In this document: one piece after another, positions 26,408 to 47,672 of the stretch
Numbering within the stretch: the first letter of the stretch is position 1
How the letters are laid out: the number at the start of each line of letters is the position of its first letter
Virus record (IMG/VR): IMGVR_UViG_3300030117_005840
Span: 1 to 63,321 of that record
Reading direction: 5' to 3' (one strand)
DNA from: a virus
Taxonomy: Duplodnaviria > Caudoviricetes
DNA length: 63,321 bases
Position numbers and translations under genes: made by a program
The notes under the pieces: generated by a model
Databases searched by the model: none
The model's input: the letters and a program-made list of their open reading frames with translations, nothing else
Told to the model about the DNA's origin: nothing

Positions 26408-26450
26408 AGCATTTAATATATACTATTTAAATTGCTATAGTTCAAGTTGG

Positions 26451-28214
26451 ATGGGATCAAAATTACACGTTTACGAACCGCGCATAGACCCCACAACAAA
26501 GAAGATGGATGTAGGTGGTTTATTTATACCGCCCACTAATACCTTAACGGCTCTGTTGTATGGCTTCGCTAATCACGAACTGCCTAAAGCCAGAGAGTAT
26601 TATTTCTGGAGGTTGTGTGATGAGTTATGGAATCATCCTGACTTACCTGAACCTTTAATGGTTAAACACCCTTGGGCAGTCGATATGATACGGGCTGTGA
26701 TAAGGAATAAATACGTAGCTATCGGAGGCGCAGCCAACAGTGGTAAGTCTCATACTATGGCCGCATGGGGAATCCTGAACTGGTTAGCCCAGCCCCGCGA
26801 TACCCTGATCCTTCTAACCTCAACCACGTTACGTGAAGCACGAAAAAGGATTTGGGGTTCAGTGATCAGCTTGCTGATGGTGATTGAGGGAGCACCGATC
26901 AGGATTCGGGATTCGATTGGTAATGCTGCTTATATAACAGAAGGAGGAAACCTAGTAGAGCGGGCAGGTCTATCCCTTATTGCGGCAGAAAAGTCTAAAA
27001 CAAGGGAGGCTGTCGGCAAATTCATCGGTATCAAACAAAAAAAAGTGGTCGTCATCGCGGACGAATTGTCCGAACTCAGCGAGGCAATCCTACAAGCTGG
27101 TCTGTCGAACTTATCCAAAAACCCATCATTTCAAATGATTGGTATGTCGAACCCCTCTAGTCGGTTTGACGCCTTCGGGGTTTGGAGCGAGCCAAAAAAC
27201 GGGTGGGATTCCGTAGATACTAATGTTGATGAAAAGTGGACAACTAAGTGGAATGGTAAATATATCCGGTTTGATGGGGAGCGTAGTCCTAATATAACAG
27301 CAGGCGAGGTTATATATCCTTGGTTACCTACGATAGAAAAGATCAATGAAGATAAAGCCTTATTAGGACAAGAGTCGCGGGGCTATATGAGAATGGTCCG
27401 CGCCGTGTTCTTCGACTCGGACGAAACAGAGGGTATATACTCAGAAGCAGAATTATCCCGATCAGGATCATTAGGTAAAATAGAATGGAGCGGAAAACCC
27501 ACAGCTATAGCCGGACTCGACCCCGCATTCACGAATGGAGGGGATAGAACTATACTGTATACAGGTTTTGTCGGATATGATTCAAATGGGCAGTATTGCG
27601 TTATGCTGGATGAAGCGTTGCAGCTCAACGACGATGCCACCAACCACGCGGTGCCTCGCACTTATCAGATCGTCCGGCAGGTGAAAGAGGCGTGTCAGAA
27701 GAGGAAGATACTTCCGCAGGATGTTGCGGTGGATGCCACAGGAGCCGGTGCGCCTTTCTGCGATGTATTGGCGGGGGAGTGGTCTGACGAGATACTTCGC
27801 GTTTCATTCGGTGGAAAAGCGTCTGATAAACGGGTTTCGGCAAATTCTAAATTAATAGGCACAGAATTATACGTCAATAGAGTTAGCGAGTTATGGTTTG
27901 TAGGGAAAGAACTGGTAAGAACCAAGCAATTGTTTGGAATAGATAATGCGCTCGCTCAGGAAATAACAGGACGTAACTACGAAATGATCAAAGGGTCTAC
28001 TCTTCGCATGAAGATCGAGTCTAAGCCTGATTATAAGGCGCGGTTTGGACGCAGTCCTGACTTAGCGGACGCTGCCTTTCTGTGCTTAGACTTAGCTAGG
28101 CAAAGACATGGGCTTGTAGCTGTTGAGCCAGTGGAAGATAGCTCGATTAATAAGGCACGTCCACGGCGGGATATAAAAGGACTTTCTAAGATTTTAGCGG
28201 TAGATCAAATCTAA
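26451..28214 (+). CDS. terL: Terminase large subunit
   Basis: Walker A GAANSGKS, Walker B IADE, MSNP, nuclease GLDPA, VDATG and SPD.ADA; ATG at 26451 preferred over 26349. Confidence 0.88.
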   Translation: MGSKLHVYEPRIDPTTKKMDVGGLFIPPTNTLTALLYGFANHELPKAREYYFWRLCDELWNHPDLPEPLMVKHPWAVDMIRAVIRNKYVAIGGAANSGKSHTMAAWGILNWLAQPRDTLILLTSTTLREARKRIWGSVISLLMVIEGAPIRIRDSIGNAAYITEGGNLVERAGLSLIAAEKSKTREAVGKFIGIKQKKVVVIADELSELSEAILQAGLSNLSKNPSFQMIGMSNPSSRFDAFGVWSEPKNGWDSVDTNVDEKWTTKWNGKYIRFDGERSPNITAGEVIYPWLPTIEKINEDKALLGQESRGYMRMVRAVFFDSDETEGIYSEAELSRSGSLGKIEWSGKPTAIAGLDPAFTNGGDRTILYTGFVGYDSNGQYCVMLDEALQLNDDATNHAVPRTYQIVRQVKEACQKRKILPQDVAVDATGAGAPFCDVLAGEWSDEILRVSFGGKASDKRVSANSKLIGTELYVNRVSELWFVGKELVRTKQLFGIDNALAQEITGRNYEMIKGSTLRMKIESKPDYKARFGRSPDLADAAFLCLDLARQRHGLVAVEPVEDSSINKARPRRDIKGLSKILAVDQI

Positions 28215-32234: not shown

Positions 32235-35200
32235 GTGCCAGACGCTCCTATTCCACCACTTGGTGGGGTCAATGACCCCGTATTATCTCCTATTAAACAG
32301 GAGGACACGTTCAATGATTATGAATCATGGTCAAATGCCCGAGGGATGACCACTGAGGAGCCGGTTGAAAGCATAAGAAACTACGCAGATTATGTAAGGG
32401 AGTGGCACCTCAATACAGGCGAGCTGACTGACGAGATCGACGCGTCGATAAATACCGCCTTACTGCAAAAAGCACAGCAAATAGGAGCTATAGGGACTCC
32501 TGACGTAGACCCTGATTTTGAGGCTAACGCGGTAAACTTAGTAGGTGCACGTGATATTTCCTCTGACAGAAAGATTTCTCTTGTGCGTCAAGCGTTAGGG
32601 GATTTAGAGGCAGATAACTTTTCACAGAAGTTAGAAGCAGACCCTACAGACCCCTACGTCAATAACCGCTTAAATGAATCTAAAGCATTATTAGTTCGCA
32701 CAGGCGAAATCCCATTTGCTACCATTTCAAGTATTGATGGAAACGAGCGGAGTATAATAGGCGGGCCTGCTAGTAGAGGTGCTCATTTAGGGGATGCCTT
32801 TAAACGGTCAGCCATGGCAGGGACTGTCAGTTACGCAGACGCAGCACAAGCACTTAGATTTTCCCAGACCAAGAATAGTGACGGGCTTAATGTTTTTGAA
32901 CAGCAGGAACTGTCCGAATTAATGGTCGAGATGGCCGCAGCTAAGGCCGATAAATCCAATTACGATGTAATGGGAGGGGCTTTAAAAGATGTAAAAGAAG
33001 CCATTAGTAAAGCCGATAAGATAAACAAAGAGTTCATCGACACGCCTTACAAATCTATAGAGGACGCCAGGGAAGCACTACAACGTCATTATAGCAAGAC
33101 ACGAAATTCTTACGGAGCTAAGGCTCACGGTAGGTTTTCAGATAGGGACATAGGGAGAGCACTTCAGGTATTTGCAGCGCAGGACTTAAACCATTCGGGA
33201 GCATTTGAGTTTTACGATGACCCAGAAGAAGATAACCGGAACATCCGCATGTTTGGTGGTGTGCCTATGGCTCACCCCACGCTCATGCTAAGGCGTGACC
33301 GCTTTGAAAGCGCGGTAGATAAAGACACACGTCTTACGGACGAACAACGTATCTCCTTAAAACAACGCAGACAGGCTTATGTAGCAGGTGCGTTTGACCA
33401 CTATAAAGATATTTTAGATGAAACCAGTGCCACAGGTTCTAAATGGCGGGCTGCTTTGCAGGCAGGACGAGTTAAGGGAACTCCTGATGTAGACATATTA
33501 GATAATTTCTTAGCAGACCCTGAGAATTACAGCCATTTCAAAAACCAATTAACTCAATTCGGATCGTCTATAGAAGCATCGATAGCACAACTTTGGTCAT
33601 TCCCTGCTCAAATATTTGGCAGCTCTTCTGCACGTGAGTATAATGAAAAGGAAGCCAAGGAAGACGCAAGACGCAGAGAAGTTGCAGCCTTGTTCGGGGA
33701 AGAATTCAGTTGGGTGCTAGACGCCGCAGGAACAGCTTCTGCTGTTGTCGTAGATGCTTTGGTATCGTTAGGATTAGCAGCATTTACGGGAGGTGTTGTG
33801 GGTCTGGGTTACCTATCCACACAGGCTGGATCACGTGTGACTGCTAAGGGTTTAGCAAAGAAGTCTATGGGACTTACTTTATTGAAACCCAAATTTTACC
33901 AATCCCCTAAGCAACTTGCTGATGACCTGATAGCCAACAACCTGATTAAGACTTCAGGAACCGACGCTGCCAAAGTCGGAGTGGAGAAGGCTATCGAAGC
34001 ATATACCCGCGCCATGTCTAATCGCTTTATGCGTCAGACTACCATGGCAATTCCATGGGGAACACGTTCAGGTGGTGGGATGTTTGTGTCCGTATATGGC
34101 AGCCTGCCTGATACAATGTCACATGAGGAAAAACATGCCATTGCATTAGGTGCTGGACTAAAGGCAGCGGCATCGACCATCCTTATAACATCAGCATTTA
34201 GCAAGATGGGGTTGGGTGGTTTCGAAGATTCTTTATTGAATCGTGGGCTTTCCTATAAGGAGATGAAACAAGTCCTTACCAAACTATCAGGTCAAAAGGT
34301 AGGAAACAAGGAAGCTGAGGCTTTAATTAAGAGCCGCATGGCAGAGGCTATACACGAATTGGACCGACCCTTTAATAAAGGTGTAGGTAAATTCCTTAAA
34401 GCTAGGGCTAAGGACGCGTTGCCTGAAGGCATGGAGGAGGGTCTGGACGAATTTGTGCAGAGCTTTATTGAAGCCGCTGCGTTGGACGAAGAACGCCCAC
34501 TAATTGAACACATAAATAGAGCGTTAGTAGGAGCGAGAGCGGGAGCCTTGATTGGCGGCACACTCACGCCTGCCATGCGCGCCGTTAACCGGTTCGCTAC
34601 AGGAGCAGGAATAAAAGATGCTGAGTCATACGAGCGCGATCAAATTCAGAATATAATTTCGACACTGGAAGAAAACGACAGCCCATTAGCTGCTGCCGAG
34701 CTACGTAACTGGACACGCACCGCGTTGGCAAGAGGACCACGGGAAGCCCTGCCACCAAGACCTGAAGGCGCGCCCTCACTTGAAGAAGACGTAGAAGCAG
34801 AAGCCACAGAAATCACACCACCCGTAGAAGAAGATGCAGAACTTATTCCAGCATCTCCTGCTAAACAAAAACACCACAGGCAGGTTAACAAAACATTTGC
34901 AAATTACTACGCGACAGATGGAGCGACCATATTACCATCTGTCCTACCGCGCATAACTGATGAGGCTGAACTTCAGGCAGCGCGCAACGACGCCGACTAT
35001 AATATAGATTCGGATGGAGTCATTTATGGAGTCCGCATTGGCGGGACTTGGGTGGGTTTCCCTACGCGGAAAGCTACACGGAAAGATTCGCCCGAAACAT
35101 TAGGGCAGGACGAAATGCCATTCATTGATGAGGTCATGGCACAAGGCGGCCCTTCACCTAGACCGGGATTCCGTAGAGTAAAACGTAAGACAATTATTGA

Positions 35201-38200
35201 ATCGCTTGAAAAGGATGGCGTTGATGAAGACGGTAAAGATAAATACAAAACCGTCGAAAGAGAAGTCGAGGATTTTGAATGGGTTCCTATGTTTGAGCAG
35301 GAAGCCCCTGCAATACCTAAAGCATACACCACTGAAAGTGGCGAAGTGCAATATGAATTCCCTTTCTCAGCAGCGTTGGATAGGCCGGTAGAACAAAAAA
35401 TACAGCAGCTTTTACTGCCTTTAAGTGAGCAGACAAGTTTACCATTAGGTGAAGGTGAGGCTGTAACTGAACCCGACCCATCTGCAATACCGGAATTTGC
35501 TAAGTTAGCCGAAGGCGACGAGCGTGAGCTATTTGAACGTGCGTTGGAAATACTATCCAACTCAATTAAGAATGAAGGGCGTATCCAATCTAAGCCTGTA
35601 ATTGATTGGTTAGATAATCAGTTTGAACGCAACGGCACAATATCTCCTCAATTACTGGATTACATAACTCAGACCATTGAGGTAGCGGTTCAGGAATCAG
35701 GGACGGTGGACTCTGAAATGGCTGATTTCAGGGAAGCCATTTTCACTTCATTCAACACAAGTATGTCTCTCATGCTGGAAGATCGGCTACGTAAAAAGGA
35801 CGTAGCTAAAAACCAGTCTGACCAGTTTACTGACTGGCAGAAAAAGAAAGAGGAAGATGAAAAAGTATACGAACAACTGGAATTCAACTTGAGTGATAAG
35901 GGGCAAGAGGATTTTAATAATGAGGTAACTAGCGCAAGACAGAAGATAAAGGAGCTGTGGGACGTAGACCCCAATACCTTCCCCGAATACGTAAAATTTG
36001 AGGATGAGTGGCCTGACGTAGCCGCAGATATATCTCCTGAACTATTGGAAAAGTGGAAAAACCGTATAACGGAATTCTATACTAGATACCTGAACCCTAA
36101 TTTGTTTGCGGGTGAACCTATTTCCAAAGCAGAGGACAAACGCTACTTAGATCATAAGAACATATTAAACGACTATAAAAATAGGGAGGGTGCTTTTTCA
36201 GATGGAGCAGTAGAAAATCTGTATGACGAAATACTTGATGCAGAGCGGTTCATTCTACAAGCATACGACCTTTATATCCAGAACCCCGAAGGGCAGAGCA
36301 TTATAGCACTACCTAAAGAACAAGCTGGCAACCAAATCCTAATCGTAGAAGATACATCCAAGATTAATTTTGAAGAGGGTGTAATAGGTGATTCGCAATT
36401 CGCATTTAACATAGGGCCAATAAAGAGGCTTGAGGCGGCACCCGCCGAAGATGAAGCCGTCATAGATGATATGACAGAGGTTGAGATAGGCGTAAACCTA
36501 GAAGACGCTGATTCATCTACCGAATATGCTGAATACTTATATTTCGCGTTAGAGGAGGTGCGCAATAAGGAAGACTATGATGACGAGGGAGCGGATAAGT
36601 CAGTAATAGAAACCGCCGGTTTCCGAGAACTAGCTAGTTTTTTAAGAGATAAACGTGCAACAGATTCACCTATATTAGCGAATGATAAATTACCCCGTGC
36701 TTCAGTAAAAATACTTGGTGACGAGCTAAAGCGGTTAGCAAATATAGCATCAACGGCAGATGGGTATGCGTCGGTAGTTGATCCGCTCAACAACAAAGCG
36801 GATGAGATTCTAGCGAACTTAAAAGCTACTAAGCCCACCACCCCCACCGCTTCGACGGTGATTGAAAGTAAGATCAGTCGGACTGAAGATGGTGGAAGAG
36901 AAGATGAACTTTCATTAGATGTCGCAACTCTAGGATTAAACATCTTTGGAGGGCATACATTGGAGGGATCAGATAAAGCTGACTCATCAGCCAATTTACG
37001 CTTCGATAATGCACTGAATGCTGAGATGCAGCTTTGGAAGTCAGAGGCGGTTAGTCGTTGGGAGAGAGCTTTCGAGTTAGGCGATAAGGAAGCCATGAGG
37101 GTTGAGAATACATATTTAGCTGCGCTAAACTCTGGTTCTCTATCGGGGCGGTTCGGCGGCAGCTTCGTCGGTATGTCTTTTATAGGTAATTTAAGCGCAT
37201 CGGATGGCATTCCTATAGCCCTTTTAGAGAGGTTATATTCTGATATAAAAGAGTCATATGAATATTGGAGGGGTGCTAAAAAATATGATTGGTTCCTCCC
37301 AGATGTAGTGCGGAGGGACAAGCATCCCGAAGACGTAGACTTATTAAGGGATAAGCTAAAGTTACTCAGCGATCATTTATCAGAAGTAAGGAATGATCCC
37401 AGCCAGCTATCGCCTAATTCACAAGAAGAATTACCTATATTCGTCGGAAACACAGACACAGAGGATTACCATTATAACGCATCATGGAAGAAAGCCGGAG
37501 GTAATGACTTATATATAGAAATAGATACAGGGTTTATCGCAGACCCATTGGAAAAAGCAGCCGCTGATAAGTTCGTTGGTGCCTTCAGCAGACTTAAAGT
37601 TGAGAAGGTGGGCGAAGGCACCGGAAGGCATATAAGATGGCGCGCTACCTTGGATGGCGAGACTTTAACTAAGAATGATGGGAGTGAGGCTATCTTCAAG
37701 AAACTGAAAGAGGCCAAAGAATTTGTATTCAACGACGATAATACTCAGCCCCCAGACGAATTAACTGTCCTTTTAAATAACGTCGTATACGAACCAACTT
37801 CAGCTCTCCCAGACCCTAAGTTTATAGTTGCCTCTGGGCTAAGGACGCGTTTCCTGACGGAAGAGGACAAAGCGGAGATACTAGCAAGACCGGATGCAGC
37901 CGCTGCGGAACCAGTTACTGATGGCATCACCGTCTTTAATAGTAAGTGGTCAACAGAGCGGTTAGAAACTGAACACGGCACCGAAAGATTCCCCAAAGAA
38001 ACGCAGCAAGGACGCTTGGATAACGCCAGAGACTATTTCGGTTCCGGCTATGAGCTAGGTTTGTCGGGAGCGCAGTATGAAGCCCCCAGATGGAAATGGA
38101 TTTATGAACTGACTGCCTTCAAAGAAGGGTATGCAAGTGGTCGTGAACAATCTGACGCGGACGAAACTCTCGAAACATCAATAGGTTCATACGAACCATC

Positions 38201-41200
38201 TCCTAATTCAGTTTACTCAACCCATCTTAGTGGGGATGACGGCGGTGACCACATCCAACCCTTGCTGAGCGGAGCCAATTCAACAGAGGAGAGGCAAGCC
38301 ATTCTGTCTGAATGGACGAAAAGAAACCCATTAGCATCTGCCCAGCTAAGTTCATTTATGACCAAGTGGGCTAGGATAATGGCTTATAGACCAATCTTCG
38401 TAACAAAGAAAGAGGATGGCACATCTGTTTATACCTACCATGAGGATTGGGAGGCAATGGTTGCAGAGGAGTCGGAGAGACTCCGCAAAGAAAACCCCGA
38501 TATAACTGAAGTCGAGGCGTATGATAACGCAGCTAAGTCCCTTATAGGTGACGATTACAGAGAGCGCATGCGCTACGCATCATTACTGAACAGCGCAGTT
38601 CTTGGAGGTTTTGAAGAAACCCGCATGCCTAGTGGTTATAAGGAGGATGAAATACCTATTTTGGATGAGCCGGATATGTATTTCGGTATTAACTCAAGCG
38701 TCCTTGAGGAGTATAAGCAAGAAGCTGAAACAAATATTAGAGAGGAATACAACCTATCACTTAATTCAACATTGGTTGGGTATGAAGAGTATATAAGGCT
38801 AGAGCAGCAAAGACTGGCTGAGGTAGCTTGGTCGGAAAAGATGACTCAAAACCCAACGGGAGTTATGGCTGAGGCCGACGCTCCCTTGTTGGTTAAAGCT
38901 ATTTCTTCTGTTTTAGCTATAGCAGAATCCCCCGGCTCACCTTTGAATGGAAGAGGGTTAAACACAGATATATCAACTGATAGCTTTAAGAAGGTTCTTG
39001 AGATGGCAGATGAAGCCGCGCCTTTCTCAGAGTTTGTCGAGTTCCTTGAGTCGGATGAAATGTTCGGTGAATCTGAGGCAACCCAAGAAGCTATTAACGG
39101 TATACTCAACTACTTGGGTTACGACTCTGTTATTGATCTTCGGGCAGTTGATCCGATGCAGCCAAGTGGAATGCGGAGAGACACGCCAGCCACACTTGTG
39201 GTATTTGATTCACGCCGCGTGAAGTCCGGCAACCCAATCACATTTGACGATGATGGGCAGATCATACTACCCGAAGACCGAATTGATTTAAGGGATTACG
39301 ATGAGCGCAGGACACAAGTAGCTGCTTTTGAGTCAACCACCCCGCCGCCAATGATTTCAGGAACCCATAATGGGATGGAGGCTATCGCGGCAGATGATTC
39401 AGAAAACACAGCAACTGATATAAAGCGCAGGGTTAACGACAACGTAGGACTAGCATTAGACGTAGCTTCATCGAATGGAGTAAACACAACGGTTGTCCGC
39501 AGCTTAGATTACGCGCCCGGAGGCTCTAAACAGAATGCACCCCCTATGTGGGCGAAGGGTAATATGGTCTACATCAACCCTTACGGAGTAGCCCGAGCCA
39601 TAAGTGGATTGCAGGATAAAGATGCCCTGCACTTATCCGTTACGATGGTCAGTGAGGAGATGGCGCACGTAGCCAGTTGGAACGTCCTTACAAGGGCTGA
39701 AGTTCAGGAAGTAATCGATAGCTTAGGTGACGGTGACTTTACAGATATAGCAGATGAATATTACCAAGACCAATCCTCTAAAGAGGCTTCGTTTGCGAGA
39801 CTCAACTCACCTGACCCTACCGTATCCGGTAAGGAAAAGTATAGGCTAATTGAGGAGAAGATGCGTATGCACGCACAACGAGTGGTGCGTGGCTTTACTA
39901 CTGAAGAAGATAACAAGTTTTTTAGGAGTAACCCCAATCTGCTCCAGCGTGCAATCCGTTACATGAAAGGATTCCTACGCCGGTTACTTGAGCTTCGTAA
40001 AGTCCAACGCCAGAACCCTCATCTCGCCAGAGCGACTGACCGCATTGTTACCCAATTAAGGATGATGAGAGGTAACTTCAAAGCTCCAGATATAGAGCCG
40101 TTTGATGTTAACAATCCTGAATCCGGTATGGTGGCTCTTGCAACTCAGATCGATAGCACGGCAGAGCTAAATGATACGTCGATGATTCCGGTAAAGTATG
40201 ACGAGGATGATAATATTATCCAACAGCCATATGACTTGTTAGGTTCTCCATTGCTCACTGGTAAAGGGTTCAGGAATAAGGGTGCAAGGGATTTCACAAA
40301 GCCCGACTACGTGGAACTACCCTATGCCGTAATTAAACCTGACAGGGCTAAAGTAGAAGCTGCTATCGACAGTGGAGCCATAGACCGAGCCGCCGCATTG
40401 CTTGCCAAACAAGCTGAGGAATCACTTAGTGACCCCGAACTGCCTGAAGATATCGGGCAGGCACGCTTCGGTGTATGGGGAGCGCGCTCACTCCGTAGAC
40501 TTTTATATAAAGCACCCGTTAAAGCATCCCAATCCCGTTGGCGTATCCAACCACCAGCCGAGCAGGGTATATCCGGTGGGGACTTACTAGCAGCAGAACT
40601 GATCTTTAACAGGGCAGCTAAACAATTGGATATGGATACTGCGGAACTACACGCGGTTATGCAGTTTGCTGAGAAAAAGATATGGGCAGGTAATGGATGG
40701 GTTGACGATGTAGGTGTAAAGGAACCCGAGGACACCGCCCTACATACTTCGATCTCATTGGTGGGTGTGCCGGATGATGCGAGCGAAGCCATAGAGAACA
40801 TAAGGTCTTTAGGAACCACTGCGGTGGCCTTTGCAGGTCTTTCAAATGAACCGGTAACAGCAGTGCGCCCTTCCAGTTTAGGGTTCCCTAAAGAATGGGA
40901 TGCTGCATACGACAGTTTTAAAGAGGTAGCAGAGAGGGGAGGACTCCCTATCGGTGTAGAGAACATCTACTTTAAAGTGAAGCCGGGGGTGAACTATAAA
41001 AATGAAGTAGAATTGTCTCTTCTTTGGGTTCCGCATACAATGCAGAGAAAGGGCGTGGCTAAGGCTTTATTAAAAGCCTTATTCAAAAAGGCCGATAAAA
41101 CAGGTGCCATGGTTTCTGCTTTAGCGAAGGCGTATACCACAGACGGCCCCCAAGGAAAGGAACTGGTTTCTTTCTACCAGAGAGCAGGAATGACGGGCGT

Positions 41201-44200
41201 GGGTAGAATGGAACCGCAAGCAATTACCGACCCCGAAGGATTCATTGCCGACACAATAGACTCTTGGCAGGATATAAGAGATAATGAATATGAGGACGAA
41301 CTGGATTGGAGGAAAGCGGATGACAGTCCGTTGACTTCGGAGGAGCAGCGGATATTGACAACCAGCCCTAATGAGTATTATAGCTCAACAGGGTCGAGGG
41401 ATAGATTGACGTTCCCTCTGATAGACCCCGTTCCGTCCGATGAAGCATTGGAAATAGCGGTTAGAAGGAAACAGAAAGATGAGGCTGCGAGACACTACAT
41501 GGATGAGGGTCTTCAAATATACCGCCCATATAGGGGTAAAGAAGATGCCGCTCCAGAAAGTTATTTCCCAGACCTTTACACTTCAATAGGCGACCCACCG
41601 ATACCACCAGCCACGAAACGGTTCGTGGAAGGCGAGATGGGTTCATTCTCTACAGACAAACTTCTGTATACGATTATGAATAACGGTGACCCTTTCACTA
41701 GGGAATCCGCAGAAGCCCTTAATTACACCCTCAACGTCCTGCCGGACATGGATGATGCGGATCGCTTGCGACAGCAGAACCCTGATCTGTCTGAGGAAGA
41801 GATTGAGATGCTGGCAGAATGGCCTTGGGAATCACAACCTACGCCGATTAAGGGATTGAACGCTACCATGGATGATAGGGGTAACCTTTATATAGGTGCG
41901 TTTGAAGACCCAATGACAGGTGAAGTTGAGGGTGAGGGAGGTATGTATGGTTACTTACCCAAGTCGCGTGTAGATGAAGTGTTCGACACCTTCCGCTCAG
42001 GAGCTGCCGTAAACCTGCATCATTTAAAGAAAGCTATAATGGGCACGATGTCAATCGGTGCGCAGGCTCAATCTATACATAAACGAAACTACGAGAAACA
42101 ACCTAAGACGGATGGGGTTCATGCACCGGGAGAAGGGTTCAGGGCACGTCACGGGCGATTATTGCAATATTGGTTTAGAGGAGGCAGAGTATTTCTGGAT
42201 AGCGGAGCCTTTGCGGCATTCTCTGCTAAGAACAATATTCTGGATGCGGGTAGTGTGGATGCGGCTATTAAAGCGGGCTATCCGAAAACTATTGTTGAAC
42301 AGGTATATAACAACCCGAAAAGCTCTCTGCTTAATTGGGAGGAGATAGTATCTTTTTACGAGGAATGGGCTGCGTTATCAATAAACCCAACAGATGCATT
42401 AAACCTTACTGTGGTTGCTCCTGATATAATAGGCGACCCGATAGGCACTAAAGAATTACTAGAGCAGTATAAAGATAGACTGCTAGGTTTAATGGACAAA
42501 GGAGTAACCGTAGTTGTTCCGGCGCAACGACCCAACGCGCCTAGAGACGAGGCATCGTTTGCTGATGCGGTAGGTGATATAACATCTATATTCGGGGAAG
42601 ATTCCCGCAGATGGAACTTCGTTGTAGGCGCACCTTCCGCTAAAGCTGTTTGGTCTAAGAAAGAATTAGAAACTTACGTCGATCAGGTAAGTCGGAATGA
42701 TATACCGGAAAACCAACAAGCATACAGGATTCATATGCTGGGGGCTAATGACGAGCGTGTAAGAGGATTATCTAAAAAATCAACACACGTATTAATTACC
42801 GGAGACACCACAGCCGATTTTGTCAAAGAAGATCAGTTCGATAGAACAGGACGGCCTTTAAGAAAGCTAGAAACAGAAGCCCAATGGAATAAGTATGAGA
42901 AGGTGGCACGCGACTTCGCTAAGATGGGTCAGGCTATCGCAAAATACAGCACAGCCAGACCTTTAACTAGGGGAGCCGGACAACCACTAACGGGTGTGGC
43001 TACCACCCCGACTTCATCGGACGAGCAGCTTGAGCTTTGGTCATCATTAGGAGGTATGGATTTATGGGATAGCCAAGACCCCAACGCTACCAAATTCCCT
43101 GATTGGAACCTTGATATAGCTAAGTTGGATGACCCGAGGATGCGGGGCATAACCATGAGGCATACAGGGGTTTCTGAAGCTACAGCACCAGCGGGGGAGC
43201 GTTTACATATACAACGATATCCTAGCTTCCTTATGTGGGATACGTTCTCCTTTGATAAGGACGAGGATGGCAGGCCGCAGCCTTCAATAAGTGATCCGGT
43301 ATCCGTTAAGGACATGCGGTTATTGAACAATGCTCCTGATACAAATGCTCCTACAATAGTTCGGGAAGCCCATAAGCAGAAAAAGCTAAATGGATTAAGA
43401 TATAGAGGTGCTTTGCTTGATGATATGGGGTTTGATGCAAACACCTTACAGCCCGAGGATATACGAGTTTTAGGGCAATCAGGCCGAAGGACAATTGTCG
43501 AAGTCTCATTGCCAGAAGGCATGAAACAGGTATTCTACTTGTCATCCGGTAGGGGGCGTAAGGCAGGCATCGGTGGGACAACTGCCGGACAGTGGCAACC
43601 GTTCGGTGGGTTCATGGATAATATCAGCCCACGTTCGGGTAATGTTATTCCGAGGTGGTTTATCAAAGATGCAGATTACCTGACATTACCTGATGGCTCT
43701 AATTTAGTTGAAAAATCAGCAGACTGGCTTGAAAGAAACCAAGAAATTGTTTCACAAGCTAGGTTATATGGTAGCGCGTCATTCACTGAAATATCAGAAC
43801 GTCTCGATGAGTTAGTAGAAAAAGTCGCTCCAGATAAACCTATGTGGATTAGTGGCGGCATCAACGCAGCTATTGGAGGAGGCGCATCGCAAGAGGCAAC
43901 TAACATACTACTCAACCGGCATGGAGTTACTAATGTAGTTTATGACCCAGCTAATCGTAGTCCAGAGCATAACGAAGAGGCGGCCAAACTAATTAGAGGC
44001 GGGCAGGCAGATACCGCTACAGTAGCTTCCGTAATGAATAGTGGTGTATCAGACGATGTCAGAGCGCATGCGATTGAATTGGCCGCAGATGCCATCAAGC
44101 CTAATGGCTCTGCTTATTTCTGGGTTACTGAACACGCAGCTAATCGCTACGCCGAATCTTATAGAGGATTTGTAAATCAAGTTAAGAAGAATTTCGGTGA

Positions 44201-47200
44201 AGTAATCACTAACGAATCCACAGCTTATAAAGATGGTGAGCGGATAGGTTCCTATGACCGCCTTATTGTAGCACGTAAACCTATCAAAGAATTAGACGGT
44301 GAAGAACCTGTAGAGTTAGCTTCCAGCATAGGATCACGCCCGCCTACAGATGAGGAGATTCTGAACGCCACTGAATTTCGGCATGTGCTGGACTTGTTCG
44401 ACCTGCCTGTCCTGAAGGCCGGAGGCTATAAGAAGCCTTTCAAATACAAGTTTATGCGGTGGTTAGCGGGATCGTTAGACCCACGTGTCCGCTCGCTTGA
44501 TGACCAGCGTAAGTTTATGATGAACCAATCGTTGCGCACGGTTACCAAGTTCCATGAAAATCTTAAAGCGCAGACTATTGAAGCCTACGGCTCTTTAGGT
44601 AAAGCACCTATAAAGGTTATAGCAGCGGCAATCGGAAACACCAGAGGTGCCCGACCATCTAGCGCAGATGCTAAACGTATAGAGGATTACGTTATGCAAG
44701 GAGTGGCCGCAATAGATGCTAAACTCAAGGAGCAAGAACGTATAGCTAAGAAGGGTGACATAACATACAAGGAAGTTAGGGAAGCCCGCAAGCAGGCGAA
44801 GCAACAGAAAGCCCTACTAGAAGAAGAGGCTAACGCTGAGTATGCAGTTCTAACTGAGCAAGATAGACAACGGATTATCAGGGATCGTGCAGATGCTCTT
44901 GACCTACTCCGAAATGGGAATGACACCATACCCGCCGCGCCTGAACTGGTGGATACCTTGGACAGAATGCGTAAGTATATTGATGCCTTATCAGTTAAGG
45001 TTAAGCAATTATATGGAGTCAGCCCAGAGCTTGAGGCGCGTATCGATGACCAATTGGGAATATACCTTACCCGTAGCTACAGGATATTTAATGAATCAGG
45101 TTGGGCAGATAAAGTTCTCACCGATCCGAGCGAGGAGTTCCAGCGAATAAGGGAGAAAGGTGAAGGTTACTTTAGAGAGCAGTTCATCAATGCGCAGACG
45201 GCTATGCTTTTAGATAAATCTAGAAGGGATAAGTCGAAAGCCTTGAAAGCGAAGGATGAAGTTGCTTTCGCAGATGCGGAAATGTCTGCATCCGAAGCGG
45301 CTGCCATGGCTGAATCTCAATACAATGCATTATCTGAAGGTAATAGGACGTATGGACAACAACAGGTAGAAGCCTTTATTGAAGCCTATAGGAATAAAGG
45401 TTACATGCCCGCAGGTTTAGCGGGCAAGAGTGAAGGGTATAAACCTCTCACCGACAACCTGAAAAGGAAAAAGGATTTAGACCCAAGACTACAGGAACTG
45501 CTGGGCGTTTATGGAGAAGAGAGCTTCTTCGATAACATGTTTAGGACGTTTATGACGTTGTCCACCATGGCTGCCAATCAGAACTTCTTGGTTCGCGTTG
45601 CGGAAATGGGTAGAGAACAAGGGTGGTTGTTAACTCAGGAAGAACTGAATAAGAAAGCAGCGGAAGACCCTGATACATATGGGGGTGGAAACTATGTTGC
45701 CGTAAGACCTAATGTTAGTAGCAACGATAGGAAACCAAATACCTTATATGATCCGTTCGTTAACTACATAGACAGGAAGACAGGAGAAGAATTGGATTAT
45801 GGCAAAGCTAATGTAAGCGTAGCCAGCCCGCTATTCGCGCCCAAGGAGTTCAAGGAAGCAATGGAGAAAACCTTCGAACCTTCCTTAGTAAGCCAAATGC
45901 AGGATGAAGCATCTGAAGTAGCGCAGACCATGCACAAGATAGCGAGCCGCGCCACTGGACTTTCTATGGCAACTAAGACATTAGGTTCCGTAGGTTTCTA
46001 TATCCGCAACATTGCAAGTAACATGTTGTTTTTTGCGCCCGCTCAAGGGTTCTTCAGCTACCGGCACATGACCAAGCACCTTATCAAAGAAGGGCGCAGA
46101 ACCTTGCGGTGGAGTTCGCCTGAAAAGATAGATTCGTATTACGCGGAGCTAGATGCGTTAGGTATCATAGGGGATGAGCTTAGACCATCCGTCCTTAAAG
46201 AGTTAGTTATGGGTGAGACTACGCCTGAAACTATGATGAAGGACTTGGATACCATGTTAGCGGATGCCGAAGGGAATAAAGCATTAAAGCAAAGCAAAAA
46301 GTTCGTCGAGAAACTTCAGGAGCTTTCCCGATCTGTGGATGCTTTCTATAAGATTGCTTACTTCGAACATGAGTTAGATGTCTTACGCAAAGCCCAACGA
46401 AAATCCAGGGACGCGGGTATCAGTGATTCTATATCTGAGTTGTCAGAGTCTGAGTTAAAGCGGGAAGCCGCTCGCAAGGTTTTGATGACGGCACAGAGTT
46501 ACAGCCAAGCTCCTCCATTTGTTAAGGGCGCGCTTAAATCATGGTATGGGGTTGTGTTTGCGCCGTTCCTTCGATTCAAGATTGAAGTCCCCCGTATTAT
46601 GATAAACACGGGTAGGCTTATCTGGGAAGAGATAAAAAGTGATAACAGCGTTATCAGAAATAGGGGCTACAGAAGATTGAGTGGGTTCACATTCGCCGTC
46701 GGTGGATTAGGAACCGGCATGTCTTATCTGATCTCCCATATGTTCGGAGGATTGACGGATGAGGAGGAAGAAGCTAACCGAGCTTCGATGCCACATTATT
46801 TAAGATCACATACGTTCATTACGTATAAGCGTGATGGTGAACTTAGATCACTTGACCTGACTTATATTAATCCGTTCGCTACGATGCTCGACCCAATGAT
46901 GCGTGCGTTCCCTGAGATCATGCGCGGGGATGTGCCTGAAGCTACGCGTGAGTTTATGACTGCGTTATTCGCTAACCAGTTCTTAGATGAGCAGATCATG
47001 TTCGGAACCATACAGTCTATGATTAAGAACAAGAACCCAGATACTGACCAGCCTATTGTGGAAGCTACGGATTCCGCAGAAGATGCGTTATATAAATGGG
47101 GGCGTTTCTTATTTAGTGAAGCTATTGTCCCTCCATCAGTGGAACGTATCGGCAAGGGGAGTGACATAATGCAACTGTTGATGGGCGACAACGCCGCTGG

Positions 47201-47672
47201 CAATTTCGACCCAATCTTCGCATTAGGTAGGGAGTTCTATCCCGCCAGAGAGTATACAATCAAACCGGTTGATCAGCTTGAGCGTTACCTAAGAACCCGA
47301 AGTGAGGAAATGAAAAGGGCTAAGATGCTTACACGCCGTTTAAGATGGGAAAATATCTCAGATGAAGATGTCCGTAAGATAGCACAGAGGGATGTAGAAA
47401 AACGTAAGCGCATCAATAAAGATATGCAGCGCATGTTTAAAGGGTTTGAGAGCATGGGAATTTCCGAAGGTAAGATTTACGATATCGCTAAGTCCAAGAA
47501 CTTTGGTAAGCGTAGGCTCGCGCTCCTGCACAGGGGTTACATGGAACGGCCAGTCTTATCTAAAGAGTTTCAAAGAGAGTTAGTCGGCAAGGGTGAGGAG
47601 TATGCCCGACGACTTCAAATCTTCACAGATGAAGTCAATAAGATGCCGCGCTTCATTCCATTAGATGACTAA
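32235..47672 (+). CDS. Giant polyvalent internal virion/ejection protein with ART-like, peptidase-like, GNAT, TGT/DpdA-like and SAM-MTase-like domains
   Basis: 5145-aa uninterrupted ORF. Gly/Ala TM-like segments and EG.EE..DEF near the N-terminus; GYDS..VVFD..VKS.NP.TFDD; EEMAH; QRKGVA..FY..G; FLDSGAF/APDIIGD/IHMLG; IGGG..YDP.NR..ADTAT..KPNG; C-terminal F.PF..F helical region. Confidence 0.8.
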   Translation: MPDAPIPPLGGVNDPVLSPIKQEDTFNDYESWSNARGMTTEEPVESIRNYADYVREWHLNTGELTDEIDASINTALLQKAQQIGAIGTPDVDPDFEANAVNLVGARDISSDRKISLVRQALGDLEADNFSQKLEADPTDPYVNNRLNESKALLVRTGEIPFATISSIDGNERSIIGGPASRGAHLGDAFKRSAMAGTVSYADAAQALRFSQTKNSDGLNVFEQQELSELMVEMAAAKADKSNYDVMGGALKDVKEAISKADKINKEFIDTPYKSIEDAREALQRHYSKTRNSYGAKAHGRFSDRDIGRALQVFAAQDLNHSGAFEFYDDPEEDNRNIRMFGGVPMAHPTLMLRRDRFESAVDKDTRLTDEQRISLKQRRQAYVAGAFDHYKDILDETSATGSKWRAALQAGRVKGTPDVDILDNFLADPENYSHFKNQLTQFGSSIEASIAQLWSFPAQIFGSSSAREYNEKEAKEDARRREVAALFGEEFSWVLDAAGTASAVVVDALVSLGLAAFTGGVVGLGYLSTQAGSRVTAKGLAKKSMGLTLLKPKFYQSPKQLADDLIANNLIKTSGTDAAKVGVEKAIEAYTRAMSNRFMRQTTMAIPWGTRSGGGMFVSVYGSLPDTMSHEEKHAIALGAGLKAAASTILITSAFSKMGLGGFEDSLLNRGLSYKEMKQVLTKLSGQKVGNKEAEALIKSRMAEAIHELDRPFNKGVGKFLKARAKDALPEGMEEGLDEFVQSFIEAAALDEERPLIEHINRALVGARAGALIGGTLTPAMRAVNRFATGAGIKDAESYERDQIQNIISTLEENDSPLAAAELRNWTRTALARGPREALPPRPEGAPSLEEDVEAEATEITPPVEEDAELIPASPAKQKHHRQVNKTFANYYATDGATILPSVLPRITDEAELQAARNDADYNIDSDGVIYGVRIGGTWVGFPTRKATRKDSPETLGQDEMPFIDEVMAQGGPSPRPGFRRVKRKTIIESLEKDGVDEDGKDKYKTVEREVEDFEWVPMFEQEAPAIPKAYTTESGEVQYEFPFSAALDRPVEQKIQQLLLPLSEQTSLPLGEGEAVTEPDPSAIPEFAKLAEGDERELFERALEILSNSIKNEGRIQSKPVIDWLDNQFERNGTISPQLLDYITQTIEVAVQESGTVDSEMADFREAIFTSFNTSMSLMLEDRLRKKDVAKNQSDQFTDWQKKKEEDEKVYEQLEFNLSDKGQEDFNNEVTSARQKIKELWDVDPNTFPEYVKFEDEWPDVAADISPELLEKWKNRITEFYTRYLNPNLFAGEPISKAEDKRYLDHKNILNDYKNREGAFSDGAVENLYDEILDAERFILQAYDLYIQNPEGQSIIALPKEQAGNQILIVEDTSKINFEEGVIGDSQFAFNIGPIKRLEAAPAEDEAVIDDMTEVEIGVNLEDADSSTEYAEYLYFALEEVRNKEDYDDEGADKSVIETAGFRELASFLRDKRATDSPILANDKLPRASVKILGDELKRLANIASTADGYASVVDPLNNKADEILANLKATKPTTPTASTVIESKISRTEDGGREDELSLDVATLGLNIFGGHTLEGSDKADSSANLRFDNALNAEMQLWKSEAVSRWERAFELGDKEAMRVENTYLAALNSGSLSGRFGGSFVGMSFIGNLSASDGIPIALLERLYSDIKESYEYWRGAKKYDWFLPDVVRRDKHPEDVDLLRDKLKLLSDHLSEVRNDPSQLSPNSQEELPIFVGNTDTEDYHYNASWKKAGGNDLYIEIDTGFIADPLEKAAADKFVGAFSRLKVEKVGEGTGRHIRWRATLDGETLTKNDGSEAIFKKLKEAKEFVFNDDNTQPPDELTVLLNNVVYEPTSALPDPKFIVASGLRTRFLTEEDKAEILARPDAAAAEPVTDGITVFNSKWSTERLETEHGTERFPKETQQGRLDNARDYFGSGYELGLSGAQYEAPRWKWIYELTAFKEGYASGREQSDADETLETSIGSYEPSPNSVYSTHLSGDDGGDHIQPLLSGANSTEERQAILSEWTKRNPLASAQLSSFMTKWARIMAYRPIFVTKKEDGTSVYTYHEDWEAMVAEESERLRKENPDITEVEAYDNAAKSLIGDDYRERMRYASLLNSAVLGGFEETRMPSGYKEDEIPILDEPDMYFGINSSVLEEYKQEAETNIREEYNLSLNSTLVGYEEYIRLEQQRLAEVAWSEKMTQNPTGVMAEADAPLLVKAISSVLAIAESPGSPLNGRGLNTDISTDSFKKVLEMADEAAPFSEFVEFLESDEMFGESEATQEAINGILNYLGYDSVIDLRAVDPMQPSGMRRDTPATLVVFDSRRVKSGNPITFDDDGQIILPEDRIDLRDYDERRTQVAAFESTTPPPMISGTHNGMEAIAADDSENTATDIKRRVNDNVGLALDVASSNGVNTTVVRSLDYAPGGSKQNAPPMWAKGNMVYINPYGVARAISGLQDKDALHLSVTMVSEEMAHVASWNVLTRAEVQEVIDSLGDGDFTDIADEYYQDQSSKEASFARLNSPDPTVSGKEKYRLIEEKMRMHAQRVVRGFTTEEDNKFFRSNPNLLQRAIRYMKGFLRRLLELRKVQRQNPHLARATDRIVTQLRMMRGNFKAPDIEPFDVNNPESGMVALATQIDSTAELNDTSMIPVKYDEDDNIIQQPYDLLGSPLLTGKGFRNKGARDFTKPDYVELPYAVIKPDRAKVEAAIDSGAIDRAAALLAKQAEESLSDPELPEDIGQARFGVWGARSLRRLLYKAPVKASQSRWRIQPPAEQGISGGDLLAAELIFNRAAKQLDMDTAELHAVMQFAEKKIWAGNGWVDDVGVKEPEDTALHTSISLVGVPDDASEAIENIRSLGTTAVAFAGLSNEPVTAVRPSSLGFPKEWDAAYDSFKEVAERGGLPIGVENIYFKVKPGVNYKNEVELSLLWVPHTMQRKGVAKALLKALFKKADKTGAMVSALAKAYTTDGPQGKELVSFYQRAGMTGVGRMEPQAITDPEGFIADTIDSWQDIRDNEYEDELDWRKADDSPLTSEEQRILTTSPNEYYSSTGSRDRLTFPLIDPVPSDEALEIAVRRKQKDEAARHYMDEGLQIYRPYRGKEDAAPESYFPDLYTSIGDPPIPPATKRFVEGEMGSFSTDKLLYTIMNNGDPFTRESAEALNYTLNVLPDMDDADRLRQQNPDLSEEEIEMLAEWPWESQPTPIKGLNATMDDRGNLYIGAFEDPMTGEVEGEGGMYGYLPKSRVDEVFDTFRSGAAVNLHHLKKAIMGTMSIGAQAQSIHKRNYEKQPKTDGVHAPGEGFRARHGRLLQYWFRGGRVFLDSGAFAAFSAKNNILDAGSVDAAIKAGYPKTIVEQVYNNPKSSLLNWEEIVSFYEEWAALSINPTDALNLTVVAPDIIGDPIGTKELLEQYKDRLLGLMDKGVTVVVPAQRPNAPRDEASFADAVGDITSIFGEDSRRWNFVVGAPSAKAVWSKKELETYVDQVSRNDIPENQQAYRIHMLGANDERVRGLSKKSTHVLITGDTTADFVKEDQFDRTGRPLRKLETEAQWNKYEKVARDFAKMGQAIAKYSTARPLTRGAGQPLTGVATTPTSSDEQLELWSSLGGMDLWDSQDPNATKFPDWNLDIAKLDDPRMRGITMRHTGVSEATAPAGERLHIQRYPSFLMWDTFSFDKDEDGRPQPSISDPVSVKDMRLLNNAPDTNAPTIVREAHKQKKLNGLRYRGALLDDMGFDANTLQPEDIRVLGQSGRRTIVEVSLPEGMKQVFYLSSGRGRKAGIGGTTAGQWQPFGGFMDNISPRSGNVIPRWFIKDADYLTLPDGSNLVEKSADWLERNQEIVSQARLYGSASFTEISERLDELVEKVAPDKPMWISGGINAAIGGGASQEATNILLNRHGVTNVVYDPANRSPEHNEEAAKLIRGGQADTATVASVMNSGVSDDVRAHAIELAADAIKPNGSAYFWVTEHAANRYAESYRGFVNQVKKNFGEVITNESTAYKDGERIGSYDRLIVARKPIKELDGEEPVELASSIGSRPPTDEEILNATEFRHVLDLFDLPVLKAGGYKKPFKYKFMRWLAGSLDPRVRSLDDQRKFMMNQSLRTVTKFHENLKAQTIEAYGSLGKAPIKVIAAAIGNTRGARPSSADAKRIEDYVMQGVAAIDAKLKEQERIAKKGDITYKEVREARKQAKQQKALLEEEANAEYAVLTEQDRQRIIRDRADALDLLRNGNDTIPAAPELVDTLDRMRKYIDALSVKVKQLYGVSPELEARIDDQLGIYLTRSYRIFNESGWADKVLTDPSEEFQRIREKGEGYFREQFINAQTAMLLDKSRRDKSKALKAKDEVAFADAEMSASEAAAMAESQYNALSEGNRTYGQQQVEAFIEAYRNKGYMPAGLAGKSEGYKPLTDNLKRKKDLDPRLQELLGVYGEESFFDNMFRTFMTLSTMAANQNFLVRVAEMGREQGWLLTQEELNKKAAEDPDTYGGGNYVAVRPNVSSNDRKPNTLYDPFVNYIDRKTGEELDYGKANVSVASPLFAPKEFKEAMEKTFEPSLVSQMQDEASEVAQTMHKIASRATGLSMATKTLGSVGFYIRNIASNMLFFAPAQGFFSYRHMTKHLIKEGRRTLRWSSPEKIDSYYAELDALGIIGDELRPSVLKELVMGETTPETMMKDLDTMLADAEGNKALKQSKKFVEKLQELSRSVDAFYKIAYFEHELDVLRKAQRKSRDAGISDSISELSESELKREAARKVLMTAQSYSQAPPFVKGALKSWYGVVFAPFLRFKIEVPRIMINTGRLIWEEIKSDNSVIRNRGYRRLSGFTFAVGGLGTGMSYLISHMFGGLTDEEEEANRASMPHYLRSHTFITYKRDGELRSLDLTYINPFATMLDPMMRAFPEIMRGDVPEATREFMTALFANQFLDEQIMFGTIQSMIKNKNPDTDQPIVEATDSAEDALYKWGRFLFSEAIVPPSVERIGKGSDIMQLLMGDNAAGNFDPIFALGREFYPAREYTIKPVDQLERYLRTRSEEMKRAKMLTRRLRWENISDEDVRKIAQRDVEKRKRINKDMQRMFKGFESMGISEGKIYDIAKSKNFGKRRLALLHRGYMERPVLSKEFQRELVGKGEEYARRLQIFTDEVNKMPRFIPLDD

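Follow-up and report, generated by a model that had tools for sequence, protein, structure and literature searches.

Few phage proteins are as large and as poorly understood as the polyvalent proteins. As described, they carry unrelated enzyme domains, including ART-PolyVal, GNAT and zincin-like metallopeptidase (MPTase) domains, in one giant chain near late or packaging genes, and the MPTases were predicted to autoprocess (Iyer, Burroughs, Anand, de Souza, Aravind 2017, PMC5512222). Here, a giant open reading frame (ORF) resembling these proteins in these respects, its MPTase being putative, was analyzed in the IMG/VR virus record IMGVR_UViG_3300030117_005840 (Duplodnaviria; Caudoviricetes), all 63,321 nucleotides of which are referred to as the window. 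A further likeness is the fold of its C-terminal module, which it has in common with viral proteins containing large polyvalent protein associated domains (LPD) such as LPD38. In contrast to the polyvalent proteins as described, the family of the window protein has a clade-specific peptide, here called the delimiter, at domain borders and swap points, and a putative MPTase whose first metal ligand is mostly Glu. Neither a delimiter nor a cleavage motif is described in section 8 of PMC5512222, and none was found in full-text literature searches. Polyvalent proteins and their predicted processing by MPTases are already in print; the delimiter and the cleavage code that it may represent are apparently undescribed. 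The best explanation for the giant ORF is a phage 'polyvalent' polyprotein belonging to a large clade of uncultured marine phages whose genomes span about 55-66 kb.

Parts of this architecture are known from other systems. In the viral polyproteins processed by picornavirus 3C or potyvirus NIa, the functional units of one precursor are set apart by a short repeated site that is specific to the protease of the lineage, and the protease itself is flanked by such sites. MARTX toxins combine several effectors with a cis-encoded cysteine protease, and their effector cassettes are exchanged between strains. Unlike these, the window protein is encoded by a tailed phage with double-stranded DNA, its putative protease is metallopeptidase-like, and there is no sequence or fold relation to any of them; its cleavage is what we infer. 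In polymorphic toxins, a short peptide (PxxxxDPxGL in Rhs, VENN in CdiA) divides the delivery part from variable cassettes, and a single C-terminal toxin is accompanied by an adjacent immunity gene. The family studied here has 2-7 internal delimiters, several internal cassettes and a conserved module C-terminal to the cassettes, and an assignment to the Rhs/CdiA type was rejected on these grounds. No immunity genes were seen, no search having been aimed at them.

A described protein with virion data is gp47 of the podovirus phi24B, which comprises 2811 aa with LPD5, LPD1, LPD38 and a MuF-C metallopeptidase. It was detected in virions by proteomics and not in the capsid or tail density, and was proposed to be an ejection protein; the preprint passages considered report neither a delimiter motif nor processing (bioRxiv 10.64898/2026.04.10.717836). 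Like the window family, gp47 is a giant protein with a metallopeptidase domain, which in the window family is putative, and its LPD38 has a counterpart in the LPD38-like fold of the window protein. No sequence similarity between the two was found by tblastn against phage records.

Among deposited phages, the C-terminal 1118 residues of the window protein matched only Pseudoalteromonas phage vB_Pun_Y3 (OR779980.1) with 25% identity. Its 1027-aa 'ADP-ribosyltransferase' ORF aligned with query residues 469-1094 (aa 4496-5121; E 4e-19). In this lambda-like genome of 48.9 kb the counterpart of the giant is split into a 3421-aa 'DdrB-like ParB' ORF and the following 1027-aa ORF (L003 3468-16842). 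A repeated delimiter was not found in this counterpart, and no paper on vB_Pun_Y3 was found. Against the same deposited phages, a megablast search with the giant-gene region and tblastn searches with the large terminase (TerL) and with the N-terminal 888 residues gave no match, and tblastn with the cassette region gave a single match of 72 aa.

Delimiters as cassette borders and swap points

The giant ORF (32235..47672, plus strand, as are all features of the protein given below) starts with GTG and encodes 5145 aa in one unbroken reading frame. In the initial annotation it had been described as a giant protein built from enzyme cassettes, with the motif L-x-[TS]-S-[IL]-[GS] at the borders. 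A pattern search for L.[TS]S[IL][GS] found exactly five copies, at the positions first noted and all in this ORF: LETSIG (38169..38186; aa 1979), LHTSIS (40740..40757; aa 2836), LYTSIG (41574..41591; aa 3114), LWSSLG (43035..43052; aa 3601) and LASSIG (44316..44333; aa 4028), the last of which stands directly before the conserved C-terminal module. In 2000 composition-preserving shuffles the mean number of copies was 0.0665 and none of the shuffles (0/2000) reached 5, which rules out chance occurrence. Since the pattern was chosen after the data had been seen, the tests in relatives weigh more.

The other landmarks noted earlier, EEMAH (39654), QRKGVA (41043), YSTHLS (38214), RRTQVA (39306) and LATQID (40137), were found where they had been placed. 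Three of them had been proposed as weaker variants of the motif. RRTQVA (39306..39323; aa 2358) and LATQID (40137..40154; aa 2635) lie upstream and downstream, respectively, of a core domain that is described below. They are considered true copies because they align with the delimiters of other lineages on either side of this domain (RPTQVA/RVTQVA and IATQFG/IATQLG/LASQIG, respectively). For YSTHLS, a role as delimiter was not supported.

At the DNA level, the same residues are encoded by different synonymous codons across the five copies, and the longest DNA word shared between their neighbourhoods does not exceed 8 nt. The same was observed in other lineages, where the number of identical-residue codon pairs with the same codon was 21/65 (L066), 8/19 (L026) and 14/35 (L007). 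The delimiter is therefore conserved as a peptide and not as DNA, and a DNA-level repeat or recombination site was ruled out.

For the comparison with relatives, a word-indexed search yielded 30 giant proteins of 3374-5334 aa from 1245 scored candidates. BLAST against these showed that three parts of the window protein are kept in all relatives, namely aa 1 to ~880, aa ~2440-2655 and aa 4028-5145. An exhaustive HMMER search with the C-terminal module yielded 1469 representative proteins at E<=1e-3, of which 956 reached <=1e-10 and 193 reached <=1e-30; lengths of 3000-6000 aa are common among them. A scan of IMG/VR gave 195 stretches confirmed by tblastn, and 67 loci were returned. The giant gene is complete in 42 of the 67 loci and forms a single unbroken ORF of 2325-5060 aa in every one of these (42/42); in the remaining loci it runs off the end of the contig.

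The junctions were analyzed in close relatives with 81-99% identity. In P0003, exactly the 278-aa GNAT cassette is missing and one hybrid delimiter, LYTSIS, is found at the junction. P0004 is identical through LYTSIG, where the identity stops exactly, continues with 247 unrelated residues that form an ART-PolyVal cassette, and is identical again from the next copy. P0008 contains an extra ~130 aa between LETS.. and LATSLG. For a systematic count, each member of four lineages was used as reference in turn and homology breakpoints at most 12 residues from a delimiter were scored. With the same events being counted from several references, so that the counts are not independent, 14/50 breakpoints (expected 1.89) were at a delimiter in the TSIG lineage, 13/31 (0.70) in the TQFG lineage, 4/10 (0.19) in the LQSAI lineage and 11/24 (0.52) in the SAP lineage. 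Exact junctions were also found in the IMG/VR genes: L053 and L069 share 97% identity up to aa 2213, and homology restarts exactly at LYSAP. Further cases are L007 versus L008, L010 versus L011 and L012, L038, L039 and L042, and L061 versus L066. The delimiters are cassette borders and the places at which relatives gain, lose or swap cassettes. The suggestion that the motif is a swap point for cargo domains is strongly supported by the breakpoint excess over chance, 7- to 25-fold in the four independent lineages, and the exact junctions in P0003 and P0004.

In distant relatives TSIG is not found; each has its own repeated peptide in 2-6 copies instead. In P0010-16 these are RPTQVA, [LI]ATQFG and LASQIG. 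Other lineages have LQSAI[GA] (2-3 copies), [VLR][YF]SAFG (3), VGTSFG (4), TQAG (4), SGIT (6), LQSRYG (3), SQFG (4), LETR(FG) (4) or [FY]SELG (2-3). The final copy is always directly before the conserved C-terminal module, and the homology of the window protein to its distant relatives starts at LASSIG or within ~20 aa of it. When a 26-residue window at the border of the C-terminal module was examined, the border peptide recurred as an exact 5-mer or longer word in the same protein in 20 of 64 giants, compared to 6.07 expected from random windows of the same proteins. Among representatives at 50% identity the numbers were 12/43 and 3.97, and in the IMG/VR genes recurrence was seen in 15/39, three of which look spurious.

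A maximum-likelihood tree was calculated from 111 C-terminal modules with the delimiter columns left out. The 12 delimiter classes, defined post hoc, required 23 changes on this tree compared to a mean of 75.2 after shuffling, and none of the 200 shuffles was as low. The tree places the VGTSFG and [LI]ATQFG clades as sisters, and all copies within a protein have thus changed together. One and the same cassette can be followed by different delimiters: the tail of the ART-PolyVal cassette, ...GNVIPLSQRF, is joined to LYTSIG, RYTQFG, RYSAFG or L[FY][SA]AP according to lineage, and in L011 a counterpart of the methyltransferase-like window cassette is framed by two copies of VGTSFG.

The delimiters were also located relative to predicted folds. 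AlphaFold models were obtained for the core domain (aa 2358-2672) and for the C-terminal module (aa 4000-5145), which cover the copies RRTQVA, LATQID and LASSIG. The core-domain model had a mean pLDDT of 65.4 and a pTM of 0.64, its confident part being residues ~80-255. RRTQVA (model residues 1-6) lies within residues 1-27 with pLDDT <50, and LATQID (278-283) within residues 257-315, almost all of which are below 50. In the model of the C-terminal module LASSIG corresponds to residues 29-34; residues 1-35 have pLDDT <50 and the first helix begins at residue 40. Where they were modelled, the delimiters are thus predicted to be in low-confidence linker segments beside confident cores and not inside folded domains.

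The flanks of 99 delimiter copies from 25 proteins had a P/G/S/T/D/E/N/Q content of 0.56, compared to 0.47 at random positions, and were slightly more hydrophilic than random positions. The spacing between successive delimiters ranges between 101 and 1443 aa with a domain-sized median of 290. A TOP-IDP profile of the window protein, with scale values entered by hand, agrees with the linker position.

Some smaller observations concern the same peptides. A further delimiter-like hexamer, RPSSLG (aa 2878; 40866-40883), is located 42 aa after LHTSIS and before the Pfam GNAT envelope, and is kept in P0004-7. If it were cut, a peptide of 36 aa would be freed. The ART-type cassettes of relatives are closed by a tail ...IKSADPVTxDxxGNVIPLSQRF, 6-8 residues before the delimiter, and degenerate copies of this tail (GNPITFDDDGQIILPEDRI, IPVKYDEDDNII) are found in the window protein before RRTQVA (~39234-39290) and after LATQID (~40188-40220). 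Short family members (1.0-1.5 kaa) were considered as a natural splitting at the delimiter and were left unused, their starts being heterogeneous and some being clearly truncated gene calls.

Enzyme cassettes and conserved modules

The N-terminal module (32235..34874; aa 1 to ~880) is conserved and gives BLAST high-scoring segment pairs to all distant relatives. It is followed by a lineage-specific region (34875..38168; aa 881-1978) in which no family was found. In the N-terminal module, moderately hydrophobic, Gly/Ala-rich segments of 19 residues occur at aa 494-522, and relatives also have such segments in the C-terminal module. They would be compatible with membrane insertion during ejection, from a proof of which they are far.

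Between LETSIG and RRTQVA lies a cassette (38187..39305; aa 1985-2357) that had been annotated as ART-like. A hidden Markov model (HMM) from 39 ART cassettes of relatives matched aa 2145-2344 with 37.2 bits, mainly via the C-terminal half, and it is for this half that the label can be kept; Pfam gave no match on the cassette. The Pfam ART-PolyVal family is on record for P0004-7, P0013 scores 31.1 bits compared to a cut-off of 31.2, and relatives carry PF18760 and DUF7178. The cassette downstream of the core domain (40155..40739; aa 2641-2835), likewise without a Pfam match, is partly common to the LQSAIG lineage, with 45% identity over 86 aa to P0023/L026.

The GNAT acetyltransferase cassette (40758..41573) was identified with Pfam Acetyltransf_1 (PF00583; E 6.5e-5; 23.6 bits compared to a cut-off of 20.7), the envelope comprising aa 2899-2985 (nt 40929-41189). 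The PHROG acetyltransferase family was matched with 3.2e-5, and five more Pfam models of the GNAT clan scored under their cut-offs. The GNAT label given earlier is confirmed by these matches.

For the following cassette D (41592..43034; aa 3120-3600), a relation to TGT enzymes had been suggested. It has a rare enzyme-like core. A DSGAF motif is present at aa 3322, which we take to be TGT-like. An ESM Atlas comparison gave 0.91; 17% of the members of the top cluster carry DpdA, and the recognition score, 1928, stayed under the mark of 2300. No match was found in Pfam (E<=0.1 and 5) or in the PDB. A TGT/DpdA-like function is possible and at present only a lead. The sole homologue among 5.8 billion proteins is P0181, a free-standing protein of 367 aa with 51% identity over cassette residues 124-445. 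The existence of this free-standing homologue indicates that cassettes can work as separate proteins.

In cassette E (43053..44315; aa 3607-4027) the last ~160 aa (43830-44315) are similar to class I S-adenosylmethionine (SAM)-dependent methyltransferases. ESM Atlas gave 0.94 with 198 shared features and Methyltransf_23 in 65-69% of the members; 16 of 30 matches were in Methyltransf_23 clusters, the recognition score was 2958, and the tail is like a small viral class I enzyme. The methyltransferase-like label thus rests on ESM Atlas, and Pfam found nothing in this cassette. A paralogue or homologues of cassette E were found in P0004, P0122, L011, P0153 and P0038. In P0004, aa 2827-3007 form a second methyltransferase-like unit that is 44% identical to aa 3871-3990 of the window protein; it is inserted 10 aa before LHTSIS and has no delimiter on its left side.

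In total, a search of the cassettes against Pfam, PHROGs and the PDB identified nothing beyond the GNAT domain. The protein consists of a variable array of GNAT, SAM-methyltransferase-like, ART-PolyVal-like, rare and possibly TGT/DpdA-like, and unknown cassettes between conserved modules.

The conserved C-terminal module (44334..47669; aa 4034-5145) is large and mostly alpha-helical. Its AlphaFold model (mean pLDDT 77.2; pTM 0.72) had 112 matches in BFVD at E<=0.001, mostly to C-terminal pieces. The matched proteins are mostly named 'Large polyvalent protein associated domain', including LPD38, and the names of others refer to ART-PolyVal, zeta-toxin, RelA/SpoT, lytic-transglycosylase or helicase domains. 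Also matched were Cellulophaga phage phi19:3 (8.2e-22) and the 'tail protein' of Anabaena phage A-4L (1.5e-9). Because of these matches to viral LPD/LPD38 proteins, the window protein is placed in the polyvalent-protein class by fold; the Pfam LPD models gave no match on it.

A Foldseek search of the C-terminal module against the PDB returned nothing at E<=0.001. Comparisons with the C-terminal part of N4 vRNAP gp50 (Z 5.2; root-mean-square deviation (rmsd) 5.6; 188 aligned residues) and with the PhiM1 ejectosome 8vb2_A (Z 5.0; rmsd 6.8; 237 aligned) were below the noise level, the VIA re-alignment of the module being dominated by matches of long helices. The polyprotein and injected-effector part of the initial annotation fits the known polyvalent proteins and the fold of the C-terminal module, and injection itself would follow by analogy.

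A candidate peptidase and the reading of the delimiters

The core domain between RRTQVA and LATQID, termed MPTase-2 (39543..40070), has its confident fold at aa 2437-2612 and contains the EEMAH motif (39654-39668) and the downstream Glu E2541. In an alignment of 15 sequences E2475, H2478 and E2541 are invariant. A family HMM identified 177 domains with the four columns EEHE (123), HEHE (37) or other (17), so that 160/177 read [H/E]-E-H-E. In the AlphaFold model, the core blocks have pLDDT 74-93; two short strands at residues 81-84 and 87-90 are followed by a long helix with the motif (104-127) and a later helix with the downstream Glu (171-195). Zincin-like MPTases have been described with the same succession of elements (PMC5512222). 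The peptidase-like label of the initial annotation is thus favoured by the conserved motif and by the helix arrangement of the model, and it lacks a fold or sequence match to a known zincin. Judged from the motif and the model, the core domain is a likely but unproven zincin-like metallopeptidase.

A second xExxH domain, MPTase-1 (LL[HE]EYxHA), was found ~280 aa upstream of the core domain in most relatives (P0009-P0031; e.g., aa 1762-1769 of P0010). Of 149 such domains, 86 show HEH and 61 show EEH at the motif columns. It is missing from the lineage of the window, where MPTase-2 is the only such domain. Both domains are present in 135 of the 174 giants with a length of 2300 aa or more; another 29 carry the core domain alone, 8 carry MPTase-1 alone and 2 lack both, so that MPTase-2 occurs in 164. 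With a probability of 24% in hhalign, no homology between MPTase-1 and MPTase-2 was detectable. In both xExxH families the first ligand toggles between His and Glu, and the catalytic Glu, the second His and the distal Glu stay fixed.

We consider it roughly an even chance (about 0.5) that the delimiters are cut by this cis-encoded zincin-like metallopeptidase and that effectors and the C-terminal module are released. The core domain would cut with the hydrophobic fifth residue of the delimiter (I/L/F/V/Y) as P1' and the small sixth residue (Gly/Ala) as P2'. A P1'/P2' preference of this kind is known for thermolysin-type zincins. By analogy with other polyvalent proteins, the protein would be packaged in the virion and ejected, and cutting in the capsid or after ejection would divide the precursor into a C-terminal delivery module and separate effectors, among them the GNAT, methyltransferase-like and ART-like ones. 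Surviving recombinants would then break at delimiters because each cassette must stay between intact sites. The points that make a cleavage signal plausible are the conservation at the peptide level, the lineage-specific concerted variants, the linker position and the cis-encoded xExxH...E domain. The change of all copies together between sister clades is as predicted for a shared reader and not for gene conversion of 18-nt tracts with different codons.

A wider formulation, to which we give somewhat less credence and which is tentative, is that polyproteins proper have arisen in tailed phages, as ejected giant precursors with their own metallopeptidase and a clade-specific cleavage code. There would then be many natural pairs of protease and site, orthogonal to one another, and any enzyme cassette could be placed between two sites. 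The delimiter would serve both for processing and as an exchange grammar that keeps the anti-host arsenal freely interchangeable, and it would co-evolve with the protease in the manner of RNA-virus polyproteins.

If the delimiters are indeed cut, the products that arise from the 570-kDa precursor could be predicted exactly. The family, with its 1469 representative clusters and a dozen or more classes of delimiter, would provide an extensive natural collection of protease/site pairs, together with a rare case in which the co-evolution of an enzyme and its substrate site can be traced across a phage clade. Apart from cleavage, the delimiter provides a rule for dividing such giants into cassettes for annotation and expression, and explains how cassettes can be exchanged without breaking the protein.

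Several results weigh against cleavage by the core domain. About 60-70% of the homology breakpoints are away from any delimiter. P0004 has a 181-aa insert after GWVDD that is without a delimiter on its left side, a 180-aa indel inside cassette E (missing in P0008) likewise lacks a delimiter on one side, and none of the indels near aa 1403 and 1514 coincides with a delimiter. Accordingly, the motif is found at many but not at all module borders. No exact 5-mer recurrence was found in 24 of 39 IMG/VR giants, and 19 of 111 giants are without a recognisable delimiter by the post-hoc classes.

As to the enzyme, the first metal ligand is Glu and not His in 123 of 177 MPTase-2 domains, including that of the window protein, and Glu in this position is unusual for zincins. 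No match to the core domain was obtained in sequence and profile searches of Pfam, PHROGs and the PDB, and Foldseek of its model against the PDB returned nothing at E<=0.001. ArdC (6sna_A; Z 5.2; rmsd 5.0; 129 aligned) ranked 4 of 48,161 chains and is below the noise level of the tool. In a VIA-wide search the best Z was 5.7, and 6mdx_A (Z 4.2) was below the noise level. The location of the giant protein in the virion is itself presumed by analogy, and the MPTase-bearing polyvalent protein N4 vRNAP enters the virion without being processed (PMC5512222).

Two further analyses do not shift the balance. The predicted complex of the core domain with a 40-aa LASSIG peptide scored 0.28 compared to a mark of 0.32 and counts neither way. 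A comparison of the loss of the catalytic set with the loss of the delimiter (89/102 compared to 0/5; Fisher 8e-5) was not relied on; its delimiter patterns were post hoc (false-positive rate 4.1%), its five proteins represent about four lineages, and these five carry other xExxH segments outside the two HMMs.

The unprocessed packaging of N4 vRNAP would equally suit delimiters that are bound but left uncut, for instance for docking to the capsid interior, the portal or a chaperone, or as pause or translocation signals, the giant acting as one chain. Peptide conservation, linker position and clade-specific variants fit any co-evolving reader and not just a protease, and the weak likeness of the C-terminal module to the ejected proteins N4 vRNAP gp50 and PhiM1 8vb2_A, below noise level as it is, points the same way. 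We regard this as unlikely, since no candidate reader was identified, since a motif placed between unrelated enzymes, two copies of which enclose a conserved metallopeptidase-like domain, is how a polyprotein is built, and since the core of cassette D exists as the free-standing protein P0181. Cleavage by a protease other than the core domain, such as a prohead or other phage protease, the MPTase-1 of the relatives or a host protease, appears less likely still. The 135 of 174 giants with the apparently unrelated MPTase-1, the other xExxH segments in several proteins with degenerate MPTase-2 columns and the many window ORFs without assigned function would leave room for it. Against this, the lineage of the window lost MPTase-1 but keeps seven delimiter copies, no prohead protease family was found among the ORFs scanned, and a conserved host enzyme is disfavoured by the changes of the motif between closely related phages of different clades.

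Very improbable, in our estimate, is a functionless junction scar or microhomology left by the recombination that inserts cassettes. The coincidence of breakpoints with the motif and the hybrid LYTSIS of P0003, where the GNAT cassette is missing, are what such a scar would leave. The copies, however, have no DNA word longer than 8 nt in common and differ synonymously, the hexamer is kept between relatives while its flanks diverge, the copies of a protein have all changed in concert from one sister clade to the other, and the last copy keeps its place at the C-module border throughout a family of 1469 representatives. Cutting by the core domain is accordingly the reading that we prefer.

Genome context

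The record of 63,321 bp was classified as complete by CheckV, and 24.4% of it is taken up by the giant ORF. The giant gene lies 4 kb downstream of TerL (26349..28214, plus strand; phrog_2, 8.9e-14) on the same strand. In 65 of 67 related loci, a TerL with 61-79% identity is located 1.9-3.9 kb upstream of the giant, whereas the conserved modules of the giant protein are about 30-35% identical across the clade in BLAST comparisons. The phages thus form a coherent clade in which a single gene evolves very fast. The rate gap between adjacent genes, TerL (26349-28214) and the giant (32235-47672), is very large and was seen in loci L004-L070. It marks the giant gene as the arms-race locus of this abundant group of uncultured marine phages.

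The giant gene was also found on three contigs (L071-L073) binned into metagenome-assembled genomes of three phyla (Acidimicrobiaceae, Porticoccaceae and Opitutae). Most likely these are mis-binned phage contigs, probably binning artefacts, and a host assignment from them was dropped.

No portal, capsid or prohead protease was recognised by Pfam or PHROGs among the window ORFs scanned, and no tRNA gene was found in the window. On the strand opposite to the giant ORF are the genes for replication, namely those for a family A DNA polymerase, a primase, a helicase and an exonuclease. An N6/N4 DNA methylase (50027-50929; 3.8e-53) was identified on the minus strand. On the plus strand, a family 25 glycosyltransferase (9612-10391; 2.5e-8), an Amidase_3 endolysin (14480-15034; 9.3e-18), a weak match to a phage lysozyme (15346-16086) and an HNH endonuclease PHROG (54768-56330; 3.6e-44) were found.

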